Shown here one piece after another: positions 9,399 through 31,942 of a stretch of DNA of 32,000 nt. This DNA comes from Okeania sp. (GTDB lineage: Bacteria; Cyanobacteriota; Cyanobacteriia; Cyanobacteriales; Microcoleaceae). The position numbers and the translations under genes are program-made. The stretch is taken from positions 30,001 through 62,000 of the forward strand of contig NZ_JAYKGW010000090.1 in NCBI RefSeq assembly GCF_035285525.1, given 5' to 3'. Below the pieces are notes generated by a model, which saw nothing but the letters and a program-made list of their open reading frames with translations, was not told where the DNA came from and searched no databases. How positions within the stretch are numbered: the stretch's first letter is position 1; every line of letters begins with the position of its first letter.

Positions 9399-9604
9399 CA
9401 GGACTTACACCAAGCCACCAAAAAATCGGGTTTATCAAGGACTTTTCTAGTTTTAGCCACAAGACTGTAGCCATACAGCGCTTTTCACTCTCGATGAACC
9501 ATATCGTCATAAGCAAAATCTTGTAGGGACGCCCTTATGCAACGTCCCTACTGTGGTTTACTGATATGAAAACTGCTGTAAACCCGGTTTCTGTGTAAGT
9601 CCTG
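9399..9604. repeat. MITE-like element with 12-bp perfect terminal inverted repeats CAGGACTTACAC / GTGTAAGTCCTG
   Basis: The terminal repeats lie at 9399..9410 and 9593..9604. The interior carries the GTAGGGACG hairpin (9523..9551) and the block TGAAAACTGCTGTAA, which is also seen near 957..973. There is no coding capacity. Confidence 0.55.
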
Positions 9605-9610
9605 GATTCC

Positions 9611-22960: not shown

Positions 22961-22979
22961 CGAATGTAATTCGCTCTTT
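22955..22979 (+). terminator. Candidate intrinsic terminator of the 671-aa gene
   Basis: 11-bp perfect stem AAAGAGCGAAT / ATTCGCTCTTT with loop GTA. The U-tail is only short. Confidence 0.5.
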
Positions 22980-22980
22980 C

Positions 22981-23043
22981 ATTATCAATTATCAATTATC
23001 AATTATCAATTATCAATTATCAATTATCAATTATTAATTATTC
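22981..23043. repeat. Heptamer tandem repeat ATTATCA x6, plus 2-3 degenerate units (STRR-like)
   Basis: Read directly. Shorter versions of the same motif (TCATTATCAATTATC, TTATTATCAATTA) recur at 24102..24116 and 27928..27940. Confidence 0.85.
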
Positions 23044-23091
23044 ATTGAAAAAGGCGATCGCTCCCGATCAAAACCAGATTTAGGGAAAGCC

Positions 23092-23126
23092 AGAAAGCAG
23101 ATTTTTTTTCAAAAAACCGGGTTTCT
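23092..23126. repeat. Island hairpin repeat, copy R1 (left arm degenerate)
   Basis: AGAAAGCAGATTTTTTTTCAAAAAACCGGGTTTCT, preceded by the shared leader ATCAAAACCAGATTTAGGGAAAGCC. It lies immediately 3' of the 150-aa gene on the minus strand. Confidence 0.7.
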
Positions 23127-23133
23127 TAAACAA

Positions 23134-23586
23134 TTAAATCGGAGCAGTTACTAACTCTTTCTCTACTATTTCTGTTGCTTCTGGAGGTTTTTCTGCTTCT
23201 ATATCCATGAGTGCTTTTATCCTTTTAAATAAATCGACTTCTGCCGGTTCTTTGTCTGTTAATTTTTCGTAAAAATAGGGGTCATTTAACCAGTGGGGAA
23301 AAGCTATTTCTAATAAACCATTTTCCCAGAGTTTAAAACGCCAGTATTTTGATACTCGATCATCGACTATCTCAAATAATGGGGCACAATGTTTCTGAGG
23401 ATAATAGATAAAATTGTCATCGCAAATGTAGTACCAAAACTTTCCTTCTGCTTGATCGATAGCATAGACAATATATTCTTTACCTACTGTTAATCTAAAG
23501 AGGGTTTCTGTGGTTCGATTAACAGCTGGATCGAGATAATTTTCTGGAAGAGATGCGCCAGTGTTGGCAATACAACGAATTTTCAT
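23134..23586 (-). CDS. Uncharacterised 150-aa protein, protector/immunity-like member of the duplicated cassette (copy 1)
   Basis: The ATG at 23586..23584 (MKIRCIANTGASLPE...) lies 13 nt after the stop of the upstream ORF and follows AAGGAAAA. The longer 191-aa reading in the ORF track overlaps the upstream gene out of frame. By manual alignment, 100 of 150 residues are identical to the paralog at 25912..26364. Confidence 0.7.
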   Translation of the reverse strand: MKIRCIANTGASLPENYLDPAVNRTTETLFRLTVGKEYIVYAIDQAEGKFWYYICDDNFIYYPQKHCAPLFEIVDDRVSKYWRFKLWENGLLEIAFPHWLNDPYFYEKLTDKEPAEVDLFKRIKALMDIEAEKPPEATEIVEKELVTAPI

Positions 23587-23599
23587 GGGTTTATTTTCC

Positions 23600-23908
23600 T
23601 TATTGATTTCTTGGTGCTGCTTTGGGATATTCTCGTTTGAATTTAAACTCAACGTCTTGAGCAGTTTTGCGGTTTCTGTACCAGTGGACTTGTACCGCTG
23701 CTCCATCAAGTATTAAACTATTCGTACTTGACATTTTAACCCAGTCTCCTGGTTCGCCGCCATAATTTTCGACGAGTCGGGGAGAACATCTCAAAGGTTT
23801 TAATGGCGTTCCTTGAATTTCTATGGCTATCCCAGCCTTAGCCTGTTCTAAAAGCAGTTGCTCTTCTAAGTTATTGGGAGTTTCATCGGGAATCGGGCCA
23901 GTTGTCAC
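23600..23908 (-). CDS. Uncharacterised 102-aa protein, toxin-like member of the duplicated cassette (copy 1, intact)
   Basis: GTG start; an in-frame TAG lies 13 codons upstream. It encodes VTTGPIPDETPNNLEEQLLLEQAKAG...ENYGGEPGDWVKMSS...VQVHWYRNRKTAQDVEFKFKREYP. The paralog at 26378..26685 is inactivated. Confidence 0.6.
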   Translation of the reverse strand: MTTGPIPDETPNNLEEQLLLEQAKAGIAIEIQGTPLKPLRCSPRLVENYGGEPGDWVKMSSTNSLILDGAAVQVHWYRNRKTAQDVEFKFKREYPKAAPRNQ

Positions 23909-23947
23909 AGTGTTGTTTTTTTTGCTTGGTAAAAAAGGTTGATTCTA

Positions 23948-23953
23948 ATTATA
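23948..23953 (-). promoter_or_regulatory. Candidate -10 box (TATAAT) of the cassette, conserved in both copies
   Basis: TATAAT on the minus strand, about 40 nt upstream of the GTG. The same box lies at 26723..26728 in copy 2, inside a conserved stretch GCGATC.CT...TTTTATTTTATAATTAGAATCAACCTTTTTTACCAAGC. Confidence 0.3.
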
Positions 23954-23999
23954 AAATAAAAGCGATCGCTCCTTATCAAAAGCAGGTTTAAGGAAAGCC

Positions 24000-24032
24000 A
24001 GAAACCCGGTTTTTCCGAAAAACCGGGTTTCT
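24000..24032. repeat. Island hairpin repeat, copy R2
   Basis: AGAAACCCGGTTTTTCCGAAAAACCGGGTTTCT: 14-bp perfect arms with a 5-nt loop. Confidence 0.8.
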
Positions 24033-24117
24033 CAAAGGGCTGGGTTGACATAAAATTAATAGAAACCTGTAGGAGTTTATGGTCATTAACCCCCACTCTT
24101 TCATTATCAATTATCCA

Positions 24118-24879
24118 TTAAAAAGATACCCAAGATTTAACATCATCAAAACTCCAAGGCGAAGGCGGATTCTTATTGTAGTCAATAAAATATTCGTATC
24201 CGAGTTGCTCGTATAACTCAGATACTAATTGCTGTAAATCTAATATCGGTTCGATATCTGTTGGCAAAAGGGGAAAAGGGAAACTGGGAAGGCGATCGCC
24301 TACGTTAAAACTGTACAAATCTGGGGTGGGGCGAGTATTACCACGACTAACTAATATACGATAGTGTTTTGATTTGCTATTGTGGAAAACTGGCATGGCA
24401 GAGCCACCTCGTAATAAATCTATTTCTACTAAGTGAGTCATACTTTCTAAGATTTGTTGTCGTTTGGCTAGATACTTCTGGTGACCTTCTCCTGTTTTAT
24501 TAGCAGGGGAGAGAACTTCTACAACCGCGACTACTTCTTTTGTGGCTGTATCTTTGACTTCAATGTAGGATTGCCGGACTTCTTCTCGTAGGGGAATGGC
24601 TACTTTCACGGGTTTGACTGAGAGTTTTTGGGCAGTAATGGTTGCTGCCAGCGTAGTTTTTGATTCTCGATTATTTTGTACGCTAACGTCTGGTCTACCG
24701 ATAGTAATGGAGGTTGAGTTGCCGATTTTATAAACCCACTTGTCAGTGACGACTCGGTATTTGGGAGCGAGCGGTGGAACCAGGTTTCTAGCTATGGCAG
24801 CAACCAGTTGATTGTGGAAGTCAGACCAATATTCAGGTTGTTCGAGATAAGGATTCATTCCGGGAAATGGATTGGGCAT
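24118..24879 (-). CDS. DUF4058-family protein
   Basis: The start at the internal ATG gives MPNPFPGMNPYLEQPEYWSDFHNQLVAAIA, the characteristic DUF4058 N-terminus. The upstream extension in the ORF track (MFKKPGFLEKTGFL) only translates hairpin repeat R3. Confidence 0.8.
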   Translation of the reverse strand: MPNPFPGMNPYLEQPEYWSDFHNQLVAAIARNLVPPLAPKYRVVTDKWVYKIGNSTSITIGRPDVSVQNNRESKTTLAATITAQKLSVKPVKVAIPLREEVRQSYIEVKDTATKEVVAVVEVLSPANKTGEGHQKYLAKRQQILESMTHLVEIDLLRGGSAMPVFHNSKSKHYRILVSRGNTRPTPDLYSFNVGDRLPSFPFPLLPTDIEPILDLQQLVSELYEQLGYEYFIDYNKNPPSPWSFDDVKSWVSF

Positions 24880-24949
24880 GGTTTTTCTGAGGTAGTTGGT
24901 TTTATTTAATGTAGCAGAATGGGTGGCGATCGCTTTCTGAAGACTATCC

Positions 24950-24983
24950 AGAAACCCGGTTTTTTCCAAAAAACCGGGTTTCT
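24950..24983. repeat. Island hairpin repeat, copy R3
   Basis: AGAAACCCGGTTTTTTCCAAAAAACCGGGTTTCT, followed by the same TAAACAATTAAGCGGGAG sequence found after R4. Confidence 0.8.
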
Positions 24984-24990
24984 TAAACAA

Positions 24991-25022
24991 TTAAGCGGGA
25001 GTTGTTGCTAACTTTTTCTCTA
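24991..25022 (-). pseudogene. 3'-terminal remnant of a third copy of the 150-aa cassette gene
   Basis: TTAAGCGGGAGTTGTTGCTAACTTTTTCTC reads on the minus strand as ...EKKLATTPA-stop. This parallels ...DKELATAPA-stop of copy 2 (25912..) and has the same spacing to the hairpin repeat. Homology ends near 25022. Confidence 0.55.
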
Positions 25023-25078
25023 ACGATATGATAACATAATTTTGAGAAAATAAATTCACTTCTTGATTGGAGGACAAA

Positions 25079-25330
25079 ATGCAAATTACTTTGGAAATTC
25101 CTGATGAGATGCTTCAAGGAAAAGGATTAAACGAAGGAGAATGGTTGCAGGAAATAGCGATCGCTCTATTTCAAAAAGAATTAATAACTCTCGCTCGTGC
25201 TAGCAGGATTGCCCGAATGCACCAAATGGATTTTCAAAAGCTAATTGCCAGTCGCGGTATCTGCATTCATTACGATGTTGAAGAGTTTGAACAAGACATT
25301 CGGCATTTAGAAGAGCGGGGTTGGTTATGA
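25079..25330 (+). CDS. UPF0175-family antitoxin-like protein
   Basis: The ATG at 25079 follows GGAGGA. It encodes MQITLEIPDEML...LITLARASRIARMHQMDFQKLIASRGI, typical of UPF0175. Its stop overlaps the next start (ATGA). Confidence 0.8.
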   Translation: MQITLEIPDEMLQGKGLNEGEWLQEIAIALFQKELITLARASRIARMHQMDFQKLIASRGICIHYDVEEFEQDIRHLEERGWL

Positions 25331-25725
25331 TTATTGTTAGCGATACTTCACCTTTATGTAATCTACAACTGGTTAATTCTCTCTGGTTATTGCGAGAACT
25401 TTATGGTATAGTTATAATTCCTCATGTTGTGGCTGAGGAACTTGCTGCTGCTAGCAATCTGGATATTCAAAATATTTGCCACCTAGAATGGATACAAATC
25501 CGAACTCTTAGTTTAACAAAGGTTGCTGAAAGCCTTCAGAGGAAGCGGGGATTATATCCAGGAGAAGCCAAGGCCATAGCTTTAGCAATCGAGCTTAAGG
25601 CAGACGATCTGCTTATTGATGAGCGACTCGGAAGACGAGAAGCTTTGCAACTCGGATTATCTGTTATTGGTGTATTGGGGATTTTAGTCGCTGCCAAACA
25701 AAAAGGTTTAATTCCAATGGTATAA
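25327..25725 (+). CDS. DUF3368-family PIN-like toxin-like protein
   Basis: IIVSDTSPLCNL..., GEAKAIALAIELKADDLLIDERLGRREA and GVLGILVAAKQKGLI are typical DUF3368 blocks. It is paired with the UPF0175 gene. Confidence 0.8.
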   Translation: MIIVSDTSPLCNLQLVNSLWLLRELYGIVIIPHVVAEELAAASNLDIQNICHLEWIQIRTLSLTKVAESLQRKRGLYPGEAKAIALAIELKADDLLIDERLGRREALQLGLSVIGVLGILVAAKQKGLIPMV

Positions 25726-25870
25726 CCTGTTATGGATACCCTTATTGAGGAGGCTGGTTTTAGAGTAAGTGATCGTTTATACCAGCGAATTATTACTTGA
25801 TCTAGTGAGTGAAGTGTTAAAAAGGGAAGGTTGCGATCGCTCCACATCAAAACCAGATTTAGGGAAAGCC

Positions 25871-25904
25871 AGAAACCAGGTTTTTTTGAAAAAACTAGGT
25901 TTCT
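25871..25904. repeat. Island hairpin repeat, copy R4 (slightly degenerate)
   Basis: AGAAACCAGGTTTTTTTGAAAAAACTAGGTTTCT with the same leader as R1. It lies immediately 3' of cassette copy 2. Confidence 0.75.
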
Positions 25905-25911
25905 TAAACAA

Positions 25912-26364
25912 TTAAGCGGGAGCAGTTGCTAACTCTTTATCCTCTGTTTCTGTTGCTTCTGGCGGTTTTTCTGCTTCTCTATCCATGAGGTATCTTATCC
26001 TTTTAAACAAATCGACTTCTGCCGGTTCTTGGTCTGTTAATTTATCATAGAAATAGGGAATGGTAAACCATTGAGAAAACGCTACTCTTAACAAGCCGTT
26101 TGGCCTTAAATTAAAGCGCCAATATTTAGATAGTCGATCGTCTACTACCTCAAACAACGGGGCGGGATTTTGCATCGGGTAATACATATAATGGTCGTCA
26201 GCAATGTAGTACCAAATTTGTCCTTTCCATTCATAAAAAGCATAAACAACATACTCTTTGCCAATAGTTAATCCAAATTCTAGGTCTCTAGTGTAACCTC
26301 CATTAGGATCGAGATCATGCTCTGGCAGAGATGCGCCAGTGTTAGCGATACAACGAATTTTCAT
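25912..26364 (-). CDS. Uncharacterised 150-aa protector/immunity-like protein (cassette copy 2, intact)
   Basis: ATG at 26364..26362 (MKIRCIANTGASLPEHDLDP...). It is the paralog of 23134..23586. Confidence 0.7.
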   Translation of the reverse strand: MKIRCIANTGASLPEHDLDPNGGYTRDLEFGLTIGKEYVVYAFYEWKGQIWYYIADDHYMYYPMQNPAPLFEVVDDRLSKYWRFNLRPNGLLRVAFSQWFTIPYFYDKLTDQEPAEVDLFKRIRYLMDREAEKPPEATETEDKELATAPA

Positions 26365-26377
26365 GGGTTGATGTTCC

Positions 26378-26685
26378 TTATTGATTTTTAGGTGCTGTTT
26401 TGGGATATTCCCGTTTAAATTTGAACTCAACGTTTTGAGCTGTTTTGTTGTTTCTATACCAATGGACTTGTACGGAAGCTCCATCAATTAATACAGACTG
26501 TTTAGTTGTCATTTGATCCCAGTCTTCGAGAGAACCGCCATAGTTGGCCACAAGTTGCGAAGCGTATCTTAGCGGTTCTTTACTGCCATTAAAGATGGTC
26601 TTACTTTGCCCTTTTTGGCATCTTCTAGAAGTAGTTGCTATTCTAAGTTATTGGGTGTTTCATCGGGAATCGGGCCTGTTGTCAC
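26378..26685 (-). pseudogene. Inactivated paralog of the 102-aa toxin-like gene (cassette copy 2)
   Basis: Same GTG start context (VTTGPIPDETPNNLE). An in-frame TAG at 26638..26640 replaces the Glu codon of copy 1. The gene is 308 nt against 309 nt, with a 1-nt loss near the A/G run at 26605..26620. After the shift the frame reads ...GSKEPLRYASQLVANYGGSLEDWDQMTTKQSVLIDGASVQVHWYRNNKTAQNVEFKFKREYPKTAPKNQ. Confidence 0.75.
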
Positions 26686-26774
26686 AGTGTTGTTTTTTGC
26701 TTGGTAAAAAAGGTTGATTCTAATTATAAAATAAAAGCGATCACTCTTGATAAAAACCAAACTTAGGGAAAGCC

Positions 26775-26807
26775 AGAAACCCGGTTTTTCGGAAAAACCG
26801 GGTTTCT
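26775..26807. repeat. Island hairpin repeat, copy R5
   Basis: AGAAACCCGGTTTTTCGGAAAAACCGGGTTTCT, followed by CAAAGGGC as in R2. Confidence 0.8.
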
Positions 26808-26826
26808 CAAAGGGCATAATTAACAT

Positions 26827-27858
26827 TAGAGTTGTTGGGAAATAACTTAGGTTAGAAAAAAACTCAAACGAAAACTGATAGATTTCCTGAGTAATTTGAT
26901 TACTTATGCTGCCATCAGATATAAGTTCCACGGGTACAGTTGCTGTTAGCATTAATTTGTCATCAAAATCATACTTATGATTACGATAAATCTGACTGAC
27001 AACTCCATAACGTTTCATACCCTTGATATGCGTTTTCACATACTACCCTTGATTGGCTCAATTTCCGATTTTCTAATTTTTGTTGCTCACTTAACTCTCC
27101 CCCTTTTGGTTTTTTATGGGGAATGCGGATATTTTCATACTGATGCGTGGATACCTTGGAAACCACTGTCTACTTGAATCGGAATCTCTACAGGTATATT
27201 TCAAGCGCAATTTCTCCTGATCATGGAACTTCTTATCATGTAGCTTTCCTTCTCGTGCCTGGCTCAATACCAGTACTTTCTGGTTTTGATTGACTGCAAC
27301 TAAATGTTTACGAGTGTGACGCTTTTTTTTTCCCGAATAATTCAGTTTTGGTTTTTCTGAGTCAGTTAGTCGTTGCACTGGCCGCTGAAGTGCCATCCAT
27401 TATCACTCGTTTTACTCCAGGGAAACGTTCTATGAATCCTTGGACACTGTTAACTTGACGCTCTGGTAGCACCTTTTTTTCTTCCAGAGCTGCTTCTAAT
27501 GCTAGGGGTTGTCAGCGATGAACCCAATAATGTGCCTGACTACGGTCGATATCAAATAAGATACCAGCTCAATCAAAAGTTGGGTAACACTTAAAGTAGA
27601 ATAGAATGTCAAACAATTTGTCTTGATTGGTGCGTAAACGAGCCTTACGGCCTCCTCCAATAGAGCGTTGACGAGGTTTTGAGTGCAATGTTTGCTCATA
27701 CATTTGAGCAAAGGACTCCAACAAAGATTCAAATGCTTTACGGTTTAATCCCGTTAATCCTCTGAGTAACCTGTCTGGTTTTAAGGCTCGTTCAATATTT
27801 AGCATTTTTATGGCCAATTTCTTCTTGAATCATTTTACCTTATTTCCCAACAACTCTA
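26827..27858 (-). mobile_element. Degenerate IS element (IS5-family / Harbinger-like, DDE_Tnp_4-type transposase) with 19-bp perfect terminal inverted repeats
   Basis: TAGAGTTGTTGGGAAATAA at 26827..26845 is the exact reverse complement of TTATTTCCCAACAACTCTA at 27840..27858. The interior encodes transposase pieces in three frames. Confidence 0.8.
26890..27817 (-). pseudogene. IS transposase gene, multiply frameshifted (approximate 3' limit)
   Basis: HTH_Tnp_4-like N-terminus LTGLNRKAFESL...GGGRKARL...LFYFKCYPTFD (27569..27817). DDE_Tnp_4 core NYSGKKKRHTRKHL...GKLHDKK (27091..27396). C-terminal pieces IPHKKPKGGELSEQQKLENRKLSQSRVVCENA and IKGMKRYGVVSQIYRN lie in other frames. There are several stops and an A9 run at about 27326. 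Confidence 0.75.
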
Positions 27859-28027: not shown

Positions 28028-31000
28028 CTAAAGCTGAATCCTAAAATCCGTGACACCAATATCCGGCGCACCCTCTAATTTAACAAACAAACCGCCATTC
28101 CCCAAACCAGCTTTGTTACCATTACTATTGTAAAACAGTTCTCCGCTCTCGTCATTGTAAACAATAAATGCTTTGCTGCTAGCAACCTCGGCAGCATCAT
28201 CAACAACTGCAAATTCCCGTTTGCGACTGAAACTATTACCTTGAAGACTCTTGATAACTTTAAACGCGCTTTTGTCGAGAATAAGTTTGTCTTCACCCAA
28301 TATAAAGTCAGTTATTTCATCGGTTTCTGTTTTCTTAAAGTCAGCAAAAATAAAGGAATCTCTGCCTTTGCCTCCAGTTAATATATCCTCCCCTTTACCG
28401 CCATTGAGTTTGTCTTTACCCTTGCCTCCAAGTAGGGTGTCGTTGCCGTTTTTCCCCAACAGTTTGTCGTTACCGCCCTTGCCATCTAACACATCGTCTA
28501 GATTACTGCCTCTGAGAGTATTTCTACGATTGTTGCCGTTTTTAATAATGCCTTGGTTTGGGTTATTTAAGGAGTCAATTATTTCCTGACCCGTGAGGTT
28601 ATCCACAGTCTCAATGAAACCTTCACCTTTGTTGCCTTTTTCGTCGAAAAAGTTGTTAATAGTCAGTTCTTTAGTAATTACTATCTTACCATTTTTCTCC
28701 TCCAATAATTGGGAAGACTCTCCACTAAAGAGTTCCATCAGTTCTTTGTCGATATTTTGCTTGATCGTAGCGATCTTCCCATTTCCATCAATATCTATTA
28801 CTAGATCGGTACCTTGACGCAAAAAGCCAGTCTTGCCTTTAGCTAAACCACCTTCAGAAAGATCGACATCTTCTAGTTCGAGACGATCTTTACCACCAGT
28901 ATCAATGATCTGACTACCAGATGCGTTTTTAGCTTGGAGTATGTATAAATCATCTCCATCACCACCGTTCAAAATATCAGCATCGCCTCCACCTTCGAGA
29001 GTATCTTTCCCATCACCACCTTCGAGACTGTCGTTTCCAGTACCACCATCTACTTCATCATCACCTACACCACCAGATATAATGTCTTGACCATCACCAC
29101 CACTAATCACATCTGCTTGATTTCCTGAAGTTGATTTCAGTTGAAAATCTCCCAAGATAAAATCGTTTCCAGTACCACCAAACATTGTGTCAGCACCTTC
29201 ACCTCCAGACATAATATCTTCTCCAGCATTACCCCAGATTTGGTCGTCACCACCTTTGGCATAAACTGCATCATCTCCATCAAGAGACCTGATAACATCT
29301 GCCTCATCTTGACCAACCAAATGATTATCTTGACTGGTATCAACTAATTTTTTGCTGTTCTGTGCGACTCCAAAAATTGTTTCTAACTCCTCTATGTCTG
29401 TTATATTTGTAGGATTCAAAACCAAGTGAGTTAAATGAGAATATCCTTCGGGTTCAGCGATGGTGTAGGTGACATCAATGGTTGCGGATGTGGCAGTTAC
29501 AGTTTTAGGTAGTTTGACTTTCCAAGCATCTTTGGCGCTGTTGACGGTAATAGTTTTACCATCCTGAGTTACTTCTAGATTGCTAATTACTAGATCGTCT
29601 AAAGTGTAGAGATTTTTTACTTCTATATCGGGATCGCTAAAGTTCTGGAGGAGAAATTCTTTGGGCAGGCTAAATTCTTTTAAACCACTGGGTAGATCGT
29701 AATCCCAGCGAGCTGGTGTTTGACCAGGTTGACGAATATTACCCTCAGCCAAATCTACGCGATCGACTGCCCATTCGTTATCAAGTTGTATTTGAGCAGT
29801 TTGGCCGTCAGTTGTAATAGCTTCCGAATAAAAGAGACGCGATCGCTGGTCGTTACCAAAGGGATCGAGAATAGGCTCGTTAGCTTTTTTACTCTTGTTA
29901 TAAACTGAGTCTGGTACGAGGATGGAGTTAACATCTTCTGTCTCAAACTTAATCAAACCAATTCCAAATAGCAGATCGACTGTACCATCTGGTTTTGTTA
30001 CTTCTACTGCATTTTCATAAGTTTCGGAAGCTCGGATCGCATAATCCTGAGAACTACCTTCCGTGTAAACTACCACATCGCTCAAGAATGGAGAAGTAAA
30101 ACCATCGAAAGCTACAGGCTCCCCAGTAGTTGAAGTAGAAGCAGACATTATAAAAACGTTTTCCCCAGGGCTAATAATAGTATTGTTACCCCCGCCGGAA
30201 TAAATAAAATTATAGGTGTTGGCATCGGCAACTAATTTATCATCTCCTTCTCCTAAGTGGTAGCTAACCATCGGTACATATTGAGCATAAGATGTTTTTG
30301 GGAAATTACTCTCTAGAGGTTGAGAGGTAAATGGTTTAACTTTTTGTAAATCATTTTTAGTGAAATTGAAATCAGAGCTTATGTTTGCGTATTCAGCATT
30401 TAAGATTGTGTCTGCTTTATCAGTAAATATAACTTCAGGAATGTAGCTGCTATATACTCCGCCTACTCCTCCTGGTAGTTCTGTATTGTCAAAGGCATCT
30501 TTTAAACTACTGAAGTCAACCCTGTTCACTTTTCCTAATGCGAACCAATGGGTTCCATCCAGAACTTTTGTACTTTCAAAAACAACCTCATCAAATATAT
30601 CGTCATCTATTCCTAAGGTTAGCGCACTCCTAATATTATCTTTGAGAATAACTTTCCGATAGGCGTCATCTTGATTAGGTTGTCTCCCACGAATTAAAAT
30701 GTTTTCTACAAGAGACCAACCAATAGTAAAGGTTTGTTTTGACGGTGACTGCAAGGAATAGCGTTCGTCGCTACCTACTTCTTTTCTAGCTGAAGATCCC
30801 GCCAAGTCAGCAGAAGCTATAATCAAAGATTTTAAGTCAGCATCAATGCGATCGAGAGTGAAGAAAGGTCCACTGCGACTTTCTCGGGGATCGTAATATT
30901 TAATAAAGTTAGAGTCATCAATTTCAACTTCCACTTCTGATAAGTCGGAAACACCTATCTTTCTCTCAAGTGCTTGAGTTTCCAAGACAAGAGTATATTC

Positions 31001-31942
31001 TGAGTCTTTGAGATTACCTGAAGGATTTAAGTCATTGCCACCAGCACTAAAAATACCGTAGATTCTGCCATCTGTGGGGTGGGTTACTAAATGGTTTAAT
31101 CCTACCTCTCCCCCTAAGTTGACAATCCTCAGAGTATGGGGAGACTTACTCAAGTCTCCACTCAGGGCAGTAATTTCACCAGGGTTAACAGCAGAAATAA
31201 AGGCATCGTAAGTACCTGGAGCGCTTTCAAAATAGACAGAATTAGTGCCACCACCCAAGTCTATAATATCCTGGTAAATAGACGAACCTTCTGGCAGTAA
31301 AAACAACTCACCTCCATGAATATTTTTCTTAAGATAGGGATTTTTCCAACGCAAAGCATCAGTAAGAGTAATATTTGCTTCTGTTTCATTGGTGTGTAGC
31401 TGTAGGGTATCATTTCCCGAACCTAAAATATAAGGCGCTCCTCTATTATACCCAATCGGAACCTTCAGCCGATCGGGACCTTGGGTTCCAGTTAAAACCC
31501 CCACTGGTAGGTCAATAGCATAAACATCTGGGGGTGAACCGCCTAAGAAAAGATCGGGTTGGCGATCGCCAACATCACCTAAACTGGTAAAGTCCATCTT
31601 TATTCCTTCGGTGCTTGCTTGCAGCTCATCGGAAAGAATAATTCTTTCTATGTTGTCAAGTTTAGTGTTATTATTCTTGTTATCAACTTTGAGATTATAA
31701 GATACATCTGTTCGATCTAATGATATGTCTGTGCCATTGAAATTTTTTCCATTATACACATCTGAGTCTAAGATAAATACATCTCCAGCACTTGCAGTAA
31801 ATTCACTGATAGGGTTGTCAAAAGGATCTTTGTAAGTTCTGGGCTTTACTTGGTTGCTCTCGTCTCCCCCATCAACAATATCATTACCAAGACTCAGTTG
31901 ACCAGCATCAGGACTATCAGGACAACAAGTCAGGTAGTGCAA
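28028..31942 (-). CDS. Large RTX-type calcium-binding protein with a type I secretion C-terminal target domain
   Basis: 1304-aa ORF. There are two blocks of GGxGxD nonapeptide repeats, at about 28960..29340 and 28352..28520 (e.g. GGDGQDIISGGVGDDEVDGGTGNDSLEGGDGKDTLEGGGDADILNGGDGDD). The C-terminus is DEITDFILGEDKLILDKSAF...LFYNSNG...VTDFRIQL. The 5' end is uncertain: the only start candidate is a TTG at 31942, preceded by an in-frame TGA. Confidence 0.8.
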   Translation of the reverse strand: MHYLTCCPDSPDAGQLSLGNDIVDGGDESNQVKPRTYKDPFDNPISEFTASAGDVFILDSDVYNGKNFNGTDISLDRTDVSYNLKVDNKNNNTKLDNIERIILSDELQASTEGIKMDFTSLGDVGDRQPDLFLGGSPPDVYAIDLPVGVLTGTQGPDRLKVPIGYNRGAPYILGSGNDTLQLHTNETEANITLTDALRWKNPYLKKNIHGGELFLLPEGSSIYQDIIDLGGGTNSVYFESAPGTYDAFISAVNPGEITALSGDLSKSPHTLRIVNLGGEVGLNHLVTHPTDGRIYGIFSAGGNDLNPSGNLKDSEYTLVLETQALERKIGVSDLSEVEVEIDDSNFIKYYDPRESRSGPFFTLDRIDADLKSLIIASADLAGSSARKEVGSDERYSLQSPSKQTFTIGWSLVENILIRGRQPNQDDAYRKVILKDNIRSALTLGIDDDIFDEVVFESTKVLDGTHWFALGKVNRVDFSSLKDAFDNTELPGGVGGVYSSYIPEVIFTDKADTILNAEYANISSDFNFTKNDLQKVKPFTSQPLESNFPKTSYAQYVPMVSYHLGEGDDKLVADANTYNFIYSGGGNNTIISPGENVFIMSASTSTTGEPVAFDGFTSPFLSDVVVYTEGSSQDYAIRASETYENAVEVTKPDGTVDLLFGIGLIKFETEDVNSILVPDSVYNKSKKANEPILDPFGNDQRSRLFYSEAITTDGQTAQIQLDNEWAVDRVDLAEGNIRQPGQTPARWDYDLPSGLKEFSLPKEFLLQNFSDPDIEVKNLYTLDDLVISNLEVTQDGKTITVNSAKDAWKVKLPKTVTATSATIDVTYTIAEPEGYSHLTHLVLNPTNITDIEELETIFGVAQNSKKLVDTSQDNHLVGQDEADVIRSLDGDDAVYAKGGDDQIWGNAGEDIMSGGEGADTMFGGTGNDFILGDFQLKSTSGNQADVISGGDGQDIISGGVGDDEVDGGTGNDSLEGGDGKDTLEGGGDADILNGGDGDDLYILQAKNASGSQIIDTGGKDRLELEDVDLSEGGLAKGKTGFLRQGTDLVIDIDGNGKIATIKQNIDKELMELFSGESSQLLEEKNGKIVITKELTINNFFDEKGNKGEGFIETVDNLTGQEIIDSLNNPNQGIIKNGNNRRNTLRGSNLDDVLDGKGGNDKLLGKNGNDTLLGGKGKDKLNGGKGEDILTGGKGRDSFIFADFKKTETDEITDFILGEDKLILDKSAFKVIKSLQGNSFSRKREFAVVDDAAEVASSKAFIVYNDESGELFYNSNGNKAGLGNGGLFVKLEGAPDIGVTDFRIQL

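Follow-up and report, generated by a model that had tools for sequence, protein, structure and literature searches.

A 32,000-nt stretch of an Okeania sp. genome (RefSeq assembly GCF_035285525.1, contig NZ_JAYKGW010000090.1, positions 30,001 to 62,000; hereafter the window) carries two cassettes in which a gene for a protein of 102 amino acids (aa) precedes a gene for a 150-aa protein. Judged from comparative sequence analysis, each cassette is likely to be an operon of a toxin gene and an immunity gene that originated in polymorphic toxin systems. It probably encodes a stand-alone toxin of the polymorphic type (the 102-aa protein) together with the cognate immunity protein (the 150-aa protein), which act in the manner of a toxin-antitoxin (TA) module. 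An initial annotation of the DNA had proposed a TA pair or an orphan toxin tip with its immunity gene. This proposal is supported by the C-terminal position of the 102-aa domain in long toxins, by immunity homologues encoded downstream of them, by the adjacency of the two genes across genomes, by the one-sided decay of the cassettes and by purifying selection.

Two diverged cassettes and the remnant of a third

The two cassettes lie on the minus strand at 23134-23908 (copy 1) and 25912-26685 (copy 2). They are direct repeats 2778 nt apart, and their common layout was confirmed from open reading frames (ORFs) and sequence. For brevity, the two genes are named after their proposed roles. The parts of the cassettes are:

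23909..24051, minus strand: conserved 5′ region of copy 1 with a perfect hairpin, a HIP1 site and a TATAAT box; repeat families D3 and D6
23600..23908, minus strand: putative toxin gene of copy 1, 102 codons, GTG start, stop included
23587..23599, minus strand: intergenic spacer of copy 1, 13 nt
23134..23586, minus strand: putative immunity gene of copy 1, 150 codons, exact match to WP_324236247.1
26686..26826, minus strand: conserved 5′ region of copy 2 with a perfect hairpin and a TATAAT box; repeat family D6, 89% identity
26378..26685, minus strand: putative toxin pseudogene of copy 2 with an in-frame TAG and a 1-nt deletion
25912..26364, minus strand: putative immunity gene of copy 2, intact, 150 codons, exact match to WP_324236252.1
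24948..25022, minus strand: remnant of a third cassette, comprising the last 10 immunity codons and a perfect hairpin; repeat family D5

The 102-aa protein of copy 1 is 100% identical to WP_324236248.1, a 'hypothetical protein [Okeania sp.]'; the entries for the two immunity proteins bear this label too, and all three belong to a 68-kb contig. An AAGGAA motif in the spacer region of copy 1, overlapping the stop codon of the toxin gene, is likely to be the ribosome-binding site of the immunity gene. The upstream region of copy 1 contains a GCGATCGC (HIP1) site at 23962-23969, and TATAAT boxes are present in both copies (23948-23953 and 26723-26728), as the initial annotation had stated. A promoter scan left these boxes unflagged because the distance to the best -35-like hexamer is 20 nt.

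Both immunity genes are intact and about two thirds identical at the protein level (67% over 149 residues), in agreement with the earlier manual alignment. At the DNA level, the coding parts of the cassettes are 79% identical, as against 89-90% over the first 26 codons and the region upstream of them; by eye, identity reaches about 95% over the first ~180 aligned columns. The copies are two diverged subtypes of one cassette family and not recent duplicates.

Copy 2 has lost its toxin gene. At codon 16, which encodes an invariant Glu in the toxin family, the GAG of copy 1 is replaced by an in-frame TAG at 26638-26640, exactly where it had been described. The previously reported 1-nt deletion exists as well, slightly downstream of its proposed position near 26605..26620. 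In a tblastn comparison, residues 1-26 matched 26685-26608 and residues 37-102 matched 26578-26381 in a different frame, which places the deletion between 26578 and 26608. Copy 2 is thereby an orphan immunity gene. The third copy, said to survive only as the last ten or so codons of a 150-aa gene, proved real: the remnant reads EKKLATTPA* at 24991-25020, and the segment 24948-25020 matches the 3′ part of the copy 2 immunity gene and the hairpin behind it with 88% identity.

The 102-aa domain is the C-terminal tip of polymorphic toxins

A HMMER search of 1.84 billion representative proteins with an alignment of the toxin returned 885 protein clusters at E<=1e-3 and 126 at E<=1e-10. Among the best 149 matches, the domain ended no more than 25 residues from the C-terminus in 98%, preceded by anything from 0 to 2053 residues. 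The N-terminal parts of the long members comprise RHS_repeat, DUF6531, Teneurin YD-shell, PT-HINT, eCIS_core (DUF4157) and LysM domains, and one member is encoded inside an operon for an extracellular contractile injection system (eCIS) with sheath and tube genes. The resemblance of the 102-aa ORF to polymorphic-toxin tips, noted initially, holds: the domain forms the extreme C-terminus of RHS, PT-HINT and eCIS_core proteins.

One RHS protein (P0218) locates the domain border. Its PT-HINT part ends in HN|C directly before PKGPIPDQ, and the Okeania 102-aa ORF begins with M-TT-GPIPDE at this same boundary. By this comparison, the Okeania protein corresponds exactly to the C-terminal fragment expected from HINT processing.

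Four of the long toxins were examined for their neighbours. In three cases, namely two RHS proteins and a 520-aa low-GC protein of cyanobacterial type, the next gene downstream encodes a homologue of the 150-aa protein (hhalign probability 99.9%; hmmsearch E values 2e-40, 2e-32 and 1.5e-69). On Leptospira plasmids the domain occurs in classical RHS arrays and is followed by distant immunity homologues of 129 aa. Such a combination of domain architecture and gene neighbourhood is the defining template of polymorphic toxin systems (PMC3482391). Measured against this template, the family thus occupies the C-terminal-most position of multidomain trafficking and repeat proteins, with the window protein as a bare domain, and the immunity gene follows immediately, at 13 nt in the window. 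No full-length toxin gene or secretion locus lies beside the window cassettes, the secretion part being judged from ORFs near them.

In total, the range of the toxin domain (at least 885 clusters at 50% identity) covers cyanobacteria, Actinobacteria, Leptospira, phages and one giant-virus record. Members are named 'hypothetical protein', and the occasional 'filamentous hemagglutinin' or 'RHS' label stems from N-terminal parts. Viral proteins with the same domain were found in BFVD: A0A1V0SD22 from Indivirus and A0A8S5LX18, A0A8S5M8W8 and A0A8S5QZ36 from Siphoviridae (25-32% identity, Foldseek E 1.9e-5 to 4.6e-2). No function follows from their labels ('putative hemagglutinin' for the Indivirus protein, 'minor capsid protein' or uncharacterised).

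Gene linkage and one-sided decay

Homologues of the 102-aa protein with the same length occur in Okeania, Crocosphaera, Oscillatoria and many metagenomes, and at least 159 homologues of the 150-aa protein were found. Scanning species-representative genomes with the 150-aa profile yielded 78 loci from Microcoleus, Okeania, a metagenome-assembled genome labelled Trichodesmium, Hormoscilla, Oscillatoria, Tychonema, Floridaenema and others. Six-frame hidden Markov model (HMM) analysis of these loci, of the window and of loci collected earlier defined the state of 95 cassettes, all selected by their 150-aa gene.

Intact toxin-immunity pairs accounted for 62 of the 95 cassettes. Twelve further cassettes combined an intact immunity gene with a visibly decayed toxin gene, damaged by frameshifts, stops, truncations or in-frame deletion of the HW...EFKFKR motif, and 18 had an intact immunity gene without any trace of a toxin gene. 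Only three immunity genes were broken, and in all three cases an intact toxin gene was missing too. Decay is therefore one-sided: 30 cassettes keep only the 150-aa gene, as against none in the reverse state. Loss of the upstream gene with retention of the downstream one, previously read from a single cassette as the decay expected of a toxin and its protector, recurs among these cassettes.

In intact pairs, the toxin ORF usually comprises 102 codons exactly, with its end 9-18 nt ahead of the immunity start, and both the start codon at the domain boundary and the fixed length of 102 aa are conserved in more than 80 loci. Conversely, metagenome contigs were scanned with the toxin profile. In 33 of the 34 loci obtained, the immunity gene followed immediately, the lone exception (L119) being a distant match with 31% identity; apart from two cases cut by contig ends, every intact toxin gene was accompanied by an intact immunity gene. 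The survey of cyanobacterial genomes recommended in the initial annotation thus shows that the two genes are nearly always adjacent and that the 150-aa gene also exists on its own. Tandem double or triple cassettes are common (L008, L025, L030, L044, L054, L059, L062, L073, L084 and L104).

Purifying selection on both genes

Over 82 distinct intact pairs, toxin genes had a median ratio of nonsynonymous to synonymous substitution rates (dN/dS) of 0.18 and immunity genes one of 0.17. For copy 1 of the window, comparison with the closest orthologues gave 0.07 (toxin) and 0.16 (immunity). These sequence comparisons indicate that both genes are under purifying selection, and the 102-codon frame, whose lack of constraint had been named as grounds for rejecting the toxin reading, is strongly constrained. 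Solo immunity genes are constrained to the same degree (median dN/dS 0.17 against the nearest relative). For instance, the copy 2 immunity gene showed a value of 0.16 against its nearest relative in locus L115, in which the toxin gene has decayed as well. Evolutionary distances of toxins and immunity proteins correlate with r = 0.79, which was not counted as evidence for co-evolution because both genes are inherited together anyway.

The immunity proteins are uniformly acidic, with an isoelectric point (pI) of about 4.5 (4.8 for copy 1 of the window). The toxin domain has a median pI of 9.1 in the broad family and of 6.8, i.e. near neutral, in the cyanobacterial stand-alone forms.

Conserved residues and structural models

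In a broad alignment of the toxin domain, W56, K58, H75 and K89 are invariant, and L14, R44, L45, G50, G69, N79 and E87 are near-invariant. The AlphaFold2 (AF2) model of the toxin (predicted local distance difference test, pLDDT, 82) consists of a helix-strand-helix unit followed by four strands, with the conserved polar residues on strands 2, 4 and 5. The immunity protein is modelled (pLDDT 76) as a β-rich structure with a long C-terminal helix and a disordered acidic tail, and no signal peptide or membrane segment is evident from its sequence.

Neighbouring genes

The surroundings of the cassettes in the window contain the following features:

25067..25725, plus strand: UPF0175 (87 aa) and DUF3368/PIN-like (134 aa) pair in overlapping ORFs (Pfam; PADLOC PDC-S70, E 1.8e-46)
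24118..24879, minus strand: unrelated DUF4058 gene between the remnant and copy 1 (PF13267, E 3.5e-89, residues 38-288 of the listed ORF)
27091-27396, minus strand: DDE_Tnp_4 transposase fragment between the array and the RTX gene
27569-27817, minus strand: 82-aa ORF without Pfam match between the array and the RTX gene, which may be insertion sequence (IS) debris
28028-31942, minus strand: 1304-aa ORF with RTX calcium-binding nonapeptide repeats (PF00353), on the strand of the cassettes and upstream of them

The UPF0175 and DUF3368/PIN-like pair is unrelated to the cassettes and sits where most of the third cassette would be; PDC-S70 is a candidate defence system of PADLOC. The DUF4058 gene likely starts at the ATG at 24877-24879; the longer listed ORF runs through the hairpin. 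No homology to the toxin domain was found in the 1304-aa RTX ORF.

Several other loci gave observations on the neighbourhood of the immunity gene. In Iningainema tapete (L005, 4650-5650), a cassette with a toxin remnant of 31 codons is flanked by a direct repeat of about 200 bp, which duplicates the 5′ end of the next gene (299 aa) and holds a short GAGAAACCGGGTTTCTC palindrome. In this locus and in that of Argonema galeatum (L006), the gene 3′ of the immunity gene is unannotated and encodes a protein of ~300 aa. Neighbours typical of conflict systems are a CHAT-EAD1-VMAP protein with an AAA protein in L005 and a caspase-nSTAND1-WD40 protein in L006. In Microcoleus vaginatus (L002-L004, 4449-6012), a solo immunity gene without any toxin-gene trace lies between two KGK-domain (PF08872) genes. 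These KGK genes, and the DUF3095 gene upstream in L001, were considered as toxin genes and rejected as mere neighbours, having no homology to the toxin by tblastn or HMM.

Palindromic repeats at the cassette borders

Strong GAAACCCGG...CCGGGTTTC hairpins stand 5′ of both cassettes, and a further one follows the third-copy remnant. At these sites (24000-24032, 26776-26806 and 24951-24982), the GAAACCCGGTTTTT...AAAAACCGGGTTTC palindrome is perfect, with folding energies of -24 to -25 kcal/mol (z -4 to -5.7). The individual elements are:

24000-24032: hairpin upstream of copy 1, -25.1 kcal/mol, z -4.1
26776-26806: hairpin upstream of copy 2, -24.1 kcal/mol, z -5.2
24951-24982: hairpin after the third-copy remnant, -24.8 kcal/mol, z -5.7
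23091..23125, minus strand: degenerate hairpin just 3′ of the copy 1 immunity gene with only one arm intact, z -0.55; repeat families D3 and D5
25872..25903, minus strand: mismatched hairpin just 3′ of the copy 2 immunity gene, -12.5 kcal/mol, z -2.5

The initial annotation had described a hairpin closing each cassette. The element is indeed present there, but its strong form is not: the perfect copies stand upstream, and those 3′ of the immunity genes are degenerate. The hairpin belongs to a repeat of about 62 nt (D3) with GCGATCGC at its end, which brackets each cassette. Its half-site occurs 12 times in the window as compared with 0.48 expected occurrences, and the full hairpin is confined to cassette borders within the window.

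A function as a cassette-specific recombination site, comparable to attC of integrons, was considered and rejected for an obligatory part of the system. Elsewhere, only about 10 of 129 cassettes have the hairpin 3′ of the immunity gene, and other cyanobacterial loci have the same palindrome of 31-33 nt at distances of kilobases from a cassette. Because of these two observations, we regard the hairpin as a palindromic repeat dispersed in cyanobacteria, which was copied together with this array or marks its joints, and not as a defining part of the system.

Further repeats were noted in the window. About ten tandem copies of the heptamer ATTATCA lie just beyond the end of the array (22981-23053), and the motif CTCTTTCATTATCAATTATC is found at 22967-22997 and 24089-24119, where it recurs beside the DUF4058 stop codon. 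Both repeats may mark joints of the rearranged array. Distant from the cassettes, inverted repeats at 9401-9434 and 9579-9606 (aggacttaca...aaaatcgggttta and taaacccggtttct...gtaagtcct) are separated by about 150 bp; the pair looks like a miniature inverted-repeat element and has the AAACCCGGTTT core in common with the cassette hairpin.

Proposed mode of action and alternative explanations

According to the model that we favour, toxin and immunity protein would both be made in the cytoplasm from one transcript, as the 13-nt spacing suggests. The immunity protein would bind the toxin and block the polar face of its β-sheet, on which invariant W56, K58, H75 and K89 are predicted to lie together with near-invariant R44, N79 and E87. 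The toxin would be an enzyme that acts through a His/Lys/Glu cluster in the cytoplasm, a location that we infer, the immunity protein having no evident export or membrane signal. Our best guess, made with low confidence, is that it is a nuclease.

In filamentous cyanobacteria, the toxin would behave as an addiction module resembling TA systems, and this is most probably its mode in Okeania. The preference has several reasons. A start codon of its own is conserved in the toxin ORF at the domain boundary, and a trafficking part is missing; the window holds no carrier gene, and secretion genes were found neither among the scanned ORFs nor in six cyanobacterial loci; and the island contains another TA pair and transposase debris. 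In this scenario, copy 2 would have lost its toxin through the stop codon and the frameshift, with the immunity gene kept under selection, and this orphan gene may confer protection from related toxins. The unrelated TA pair would have taken the place of most of the third cassette.

Several observations weigh against this interpretation. Neither protein had a significant match in Pfam, NCBIfam, PADLOC or PHROGs, and 50 diverse members of the toxin domain, scanned singly against Pfam and NCBIfam, gave no match either; as initially suspected, both proteins are thus outside the named families of these resources. A profile search of the PDB gave no match for the toxin and only noise (E>0.7) for the immunity protein. 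Foldseek searches of the PDB with the two AF2 models reached best E values of 0.17 and 0.52 with template modelling (TM) scores of at most 0.34, so that neither a fold nor an enzymatic mechanism could be assigned, and the model lacks structural similarity to RNase toxins with a BECR fold (barnase/EndoU/colicin E5-D/RelE). The profile and structure checks recommended for the single proteins therefore delivered neither a named family nor a known fold. Moreover, the near-neutral pI of 6.8 of the cyanobacterial toxins weakens the nuclease guess. Unlike in typical type II TA modules, the toxin gene precedes its partner, and the 150-aa protein has no DNA-binding domain. Next to the eCIS-embedded homologue, no immunity homologue is present. 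Finally, in Hormoscilla (L012, L013 and L019), the gene found 17 nt upstream of an immunity gene with 84% identity to window copy 1 is an unrelated ORF of 142 aa (~3555-3983 in L012), which ends in ...GRVHGFLNNRIFYIVWLDPHHNLYS and has no Pfam match. This arrangement is not predicted by strictly cognate pairing; the 142-aa ORF could be a toxin replacement.

The cassettes might instead encode exported effector-immunity pairs for competition between filaments or kin discrimination. The toxin would then be cargo of a contractile injection system (CIS) or take another route, and orphan immunity genes would defend against the toxins of neighbours. We consider this alternative rather unlikely. In its favour, relatives carry eCIS_core domains and one of them resides in an eCIS operon, and arrays of diversified cassettes with selected orphan immunity genes resemble the orphan immunity loci of type VI secretion systems (T6SS) (PMC10539506, PMC10470768). 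It is at odds with a stand-alone protein that has no trafficking or packaging domain. In addition, no CIS, VgrG or PAAR-type gene was found among the window ORFs scanned with Pfam, i.e. those near the cassettes, most others being unscanned, and the six cyanobacterial loci with gene tables (L001-L006) contain no secretion-system genes.

It is improbable that the cassettes are silent orphan tip/immunity modules, serving as a reservoir from which tips could be recombined onto a full-length polymorphic toxin gene at another genomic site. Arrays of stand-alone tip/immunity cassettes are typical of polymorphic toxin loci (PMC3482391), a 520-aa protein of cyanobacterial type with the same tip exists, and the 5′ region plus the first 26 codons, conserved to 89-95% between the copies as compared with 79% for the rest, could be seen as a handle for such an exchange. 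This handle, however, is non-coding, promoter-like DNA with a hairpin and not the end of a carrier gene. Silent modules are also hard to reconcile with dN/dS values of 0.07-0.18 and with a start codon and length retained in more than 80 loci, and the window contains no full-length gene with this tip, as tblastn of the toxin finds the two cassettes only.

Reversed or non-toxic roles, with an active or toxic 150-aa protein and the 102-aa protein as antitoxin, adaptor or chaperone, would fit the small-upstream, larger-downstream order of many type II TA operons and the lack of a recognised catalytic fold in either protein, but are very improbable given that the 102-aa domain holds the toxin position in RHS and PT-HINT proteins and the 150-aa homologue the immunity position, and that the 150-aa gene stands alone under purifying selection in 30 cassettes, in which a lone toxin would not be tolerated.

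Relation to known systems

The kind of system is well known, and its two protein families appear undescribed in the resources searched. The Rhs/YD-repeat toxins with PT-HINT domains (Zhang et al. 2012, PMC3482391) are its closest counterpart in that some of them end in the 102-aa domain and are followed by a gene of the 150-aa family. In contrast to them, the window protein is free-standing, lacks RHS, HINT and trafficking parts and has its own start codon. None of the Ntox, Tox and Imm models of Pfam matches the toxin domain or the immunity protein. Orphan tip/immunity cassettes of contact-dependent growth inhibition (CDI), Rhs and T6SS loci (PMC10539506, PMC10470768) likewise form tandem diverged arrays in which immunity genes are kept without toxin. 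The arrays described here differ in not lying 3′ of a full-length toxin gene or secretion locus, and their toxin ORFs are complete and under selection. Type II TA modules share the small bicistronic operon, located here in a chromosomal island beside another TA pair and transposase debris, and the asymmetric loss by which the protective gene persists alone and the toxin does not. They differ in that our cassettes have the toxin gene first, a protector without recognisable DNA-binding domain and no match to TA or defence profiles.

Two candidate identities were examined and rejected. Leptospira RHS-array proteins that end in the toxin domain are annotated as 'polymorphic toxin type 10', which suggested Ntox10 (PF15520). 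This model matches neither the window protein nor any of 50 relatives, and in Leptospira it matches upstream of the domain only: the proteins at 2807-4171 of L123 and in L124 match positions 1-88 of the 193 positions of PF15520, followed by the toxin domain. Possibly, then, what the N-terminal half of the Ntox10 model describes is a linker or pre-toxin module and not the toxin part. Short, unannotated C-terminal toxin domains have also been found by the same architectural logic as polymorphic toxin (PT) and polymorphic toxin immunity (PIM) pairs (10.1101/2021.10.19.465003). Among these, PT5 (WP_084153669.1) looked promising because it is the only PT reported in cyanobacteria, namely in Microcoleaceae, in which our cassette is common; no PIM was reported for it (Nachmias et al., bioRxiv 10.1101/2021.10.19.465003). 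Peptide stretches taken from the mutagenesis primers (...REWFDSDAIRHEALTGNPVGGKFHTTKGEQYA), on which the comparison rests, are unlike our domain.

Implications for filamentous cyanobacteria

The toxin and immunity families are new and unnamed, have clear boundaries and hundreds of natural variants and are not covered by Pfam, NCBIfam or the PDB. That more polymorphic-toxin tips should await a name would not surprise the specialist. W56, K58, H75 and K89, together with R44, N79 and E87, are candidate catalytic residues, and the 102-aa Okeania ORF is a minimal natural form of the toxin, so that the pair is directly open to expression and rescue.

We also advance, as a possible if rather doubtful idea, that the 102-aa protein stands for a toxin fold that is widespread, so far undescribed and endowed with a novel enzymatic activity. 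Multicellular filamentous cyanobacteria would have taken it over from injected polymorphic toxins and domesticated it as a free-standing module for suicide or kin recognition, diversified in tandem, and solo immunity genes would serve as a shared shield.

In mat- and bloom-forming cyanobacteria (Microcoleus, Okeania, Trichodesmium-like organisms and Hormoscilla), the tandem arrays and the selected orphan immunity genes suggest a wide occurrence of conflict or addiction systems that stem from polymorphic toxins. A single new cyanobacterial toxin family had emerged from one systematic screen (10.1101/2021.10.19.465003). The cassettes hint at a reuse of polymorphic-toxin tips in filamentous cyanobacteria.

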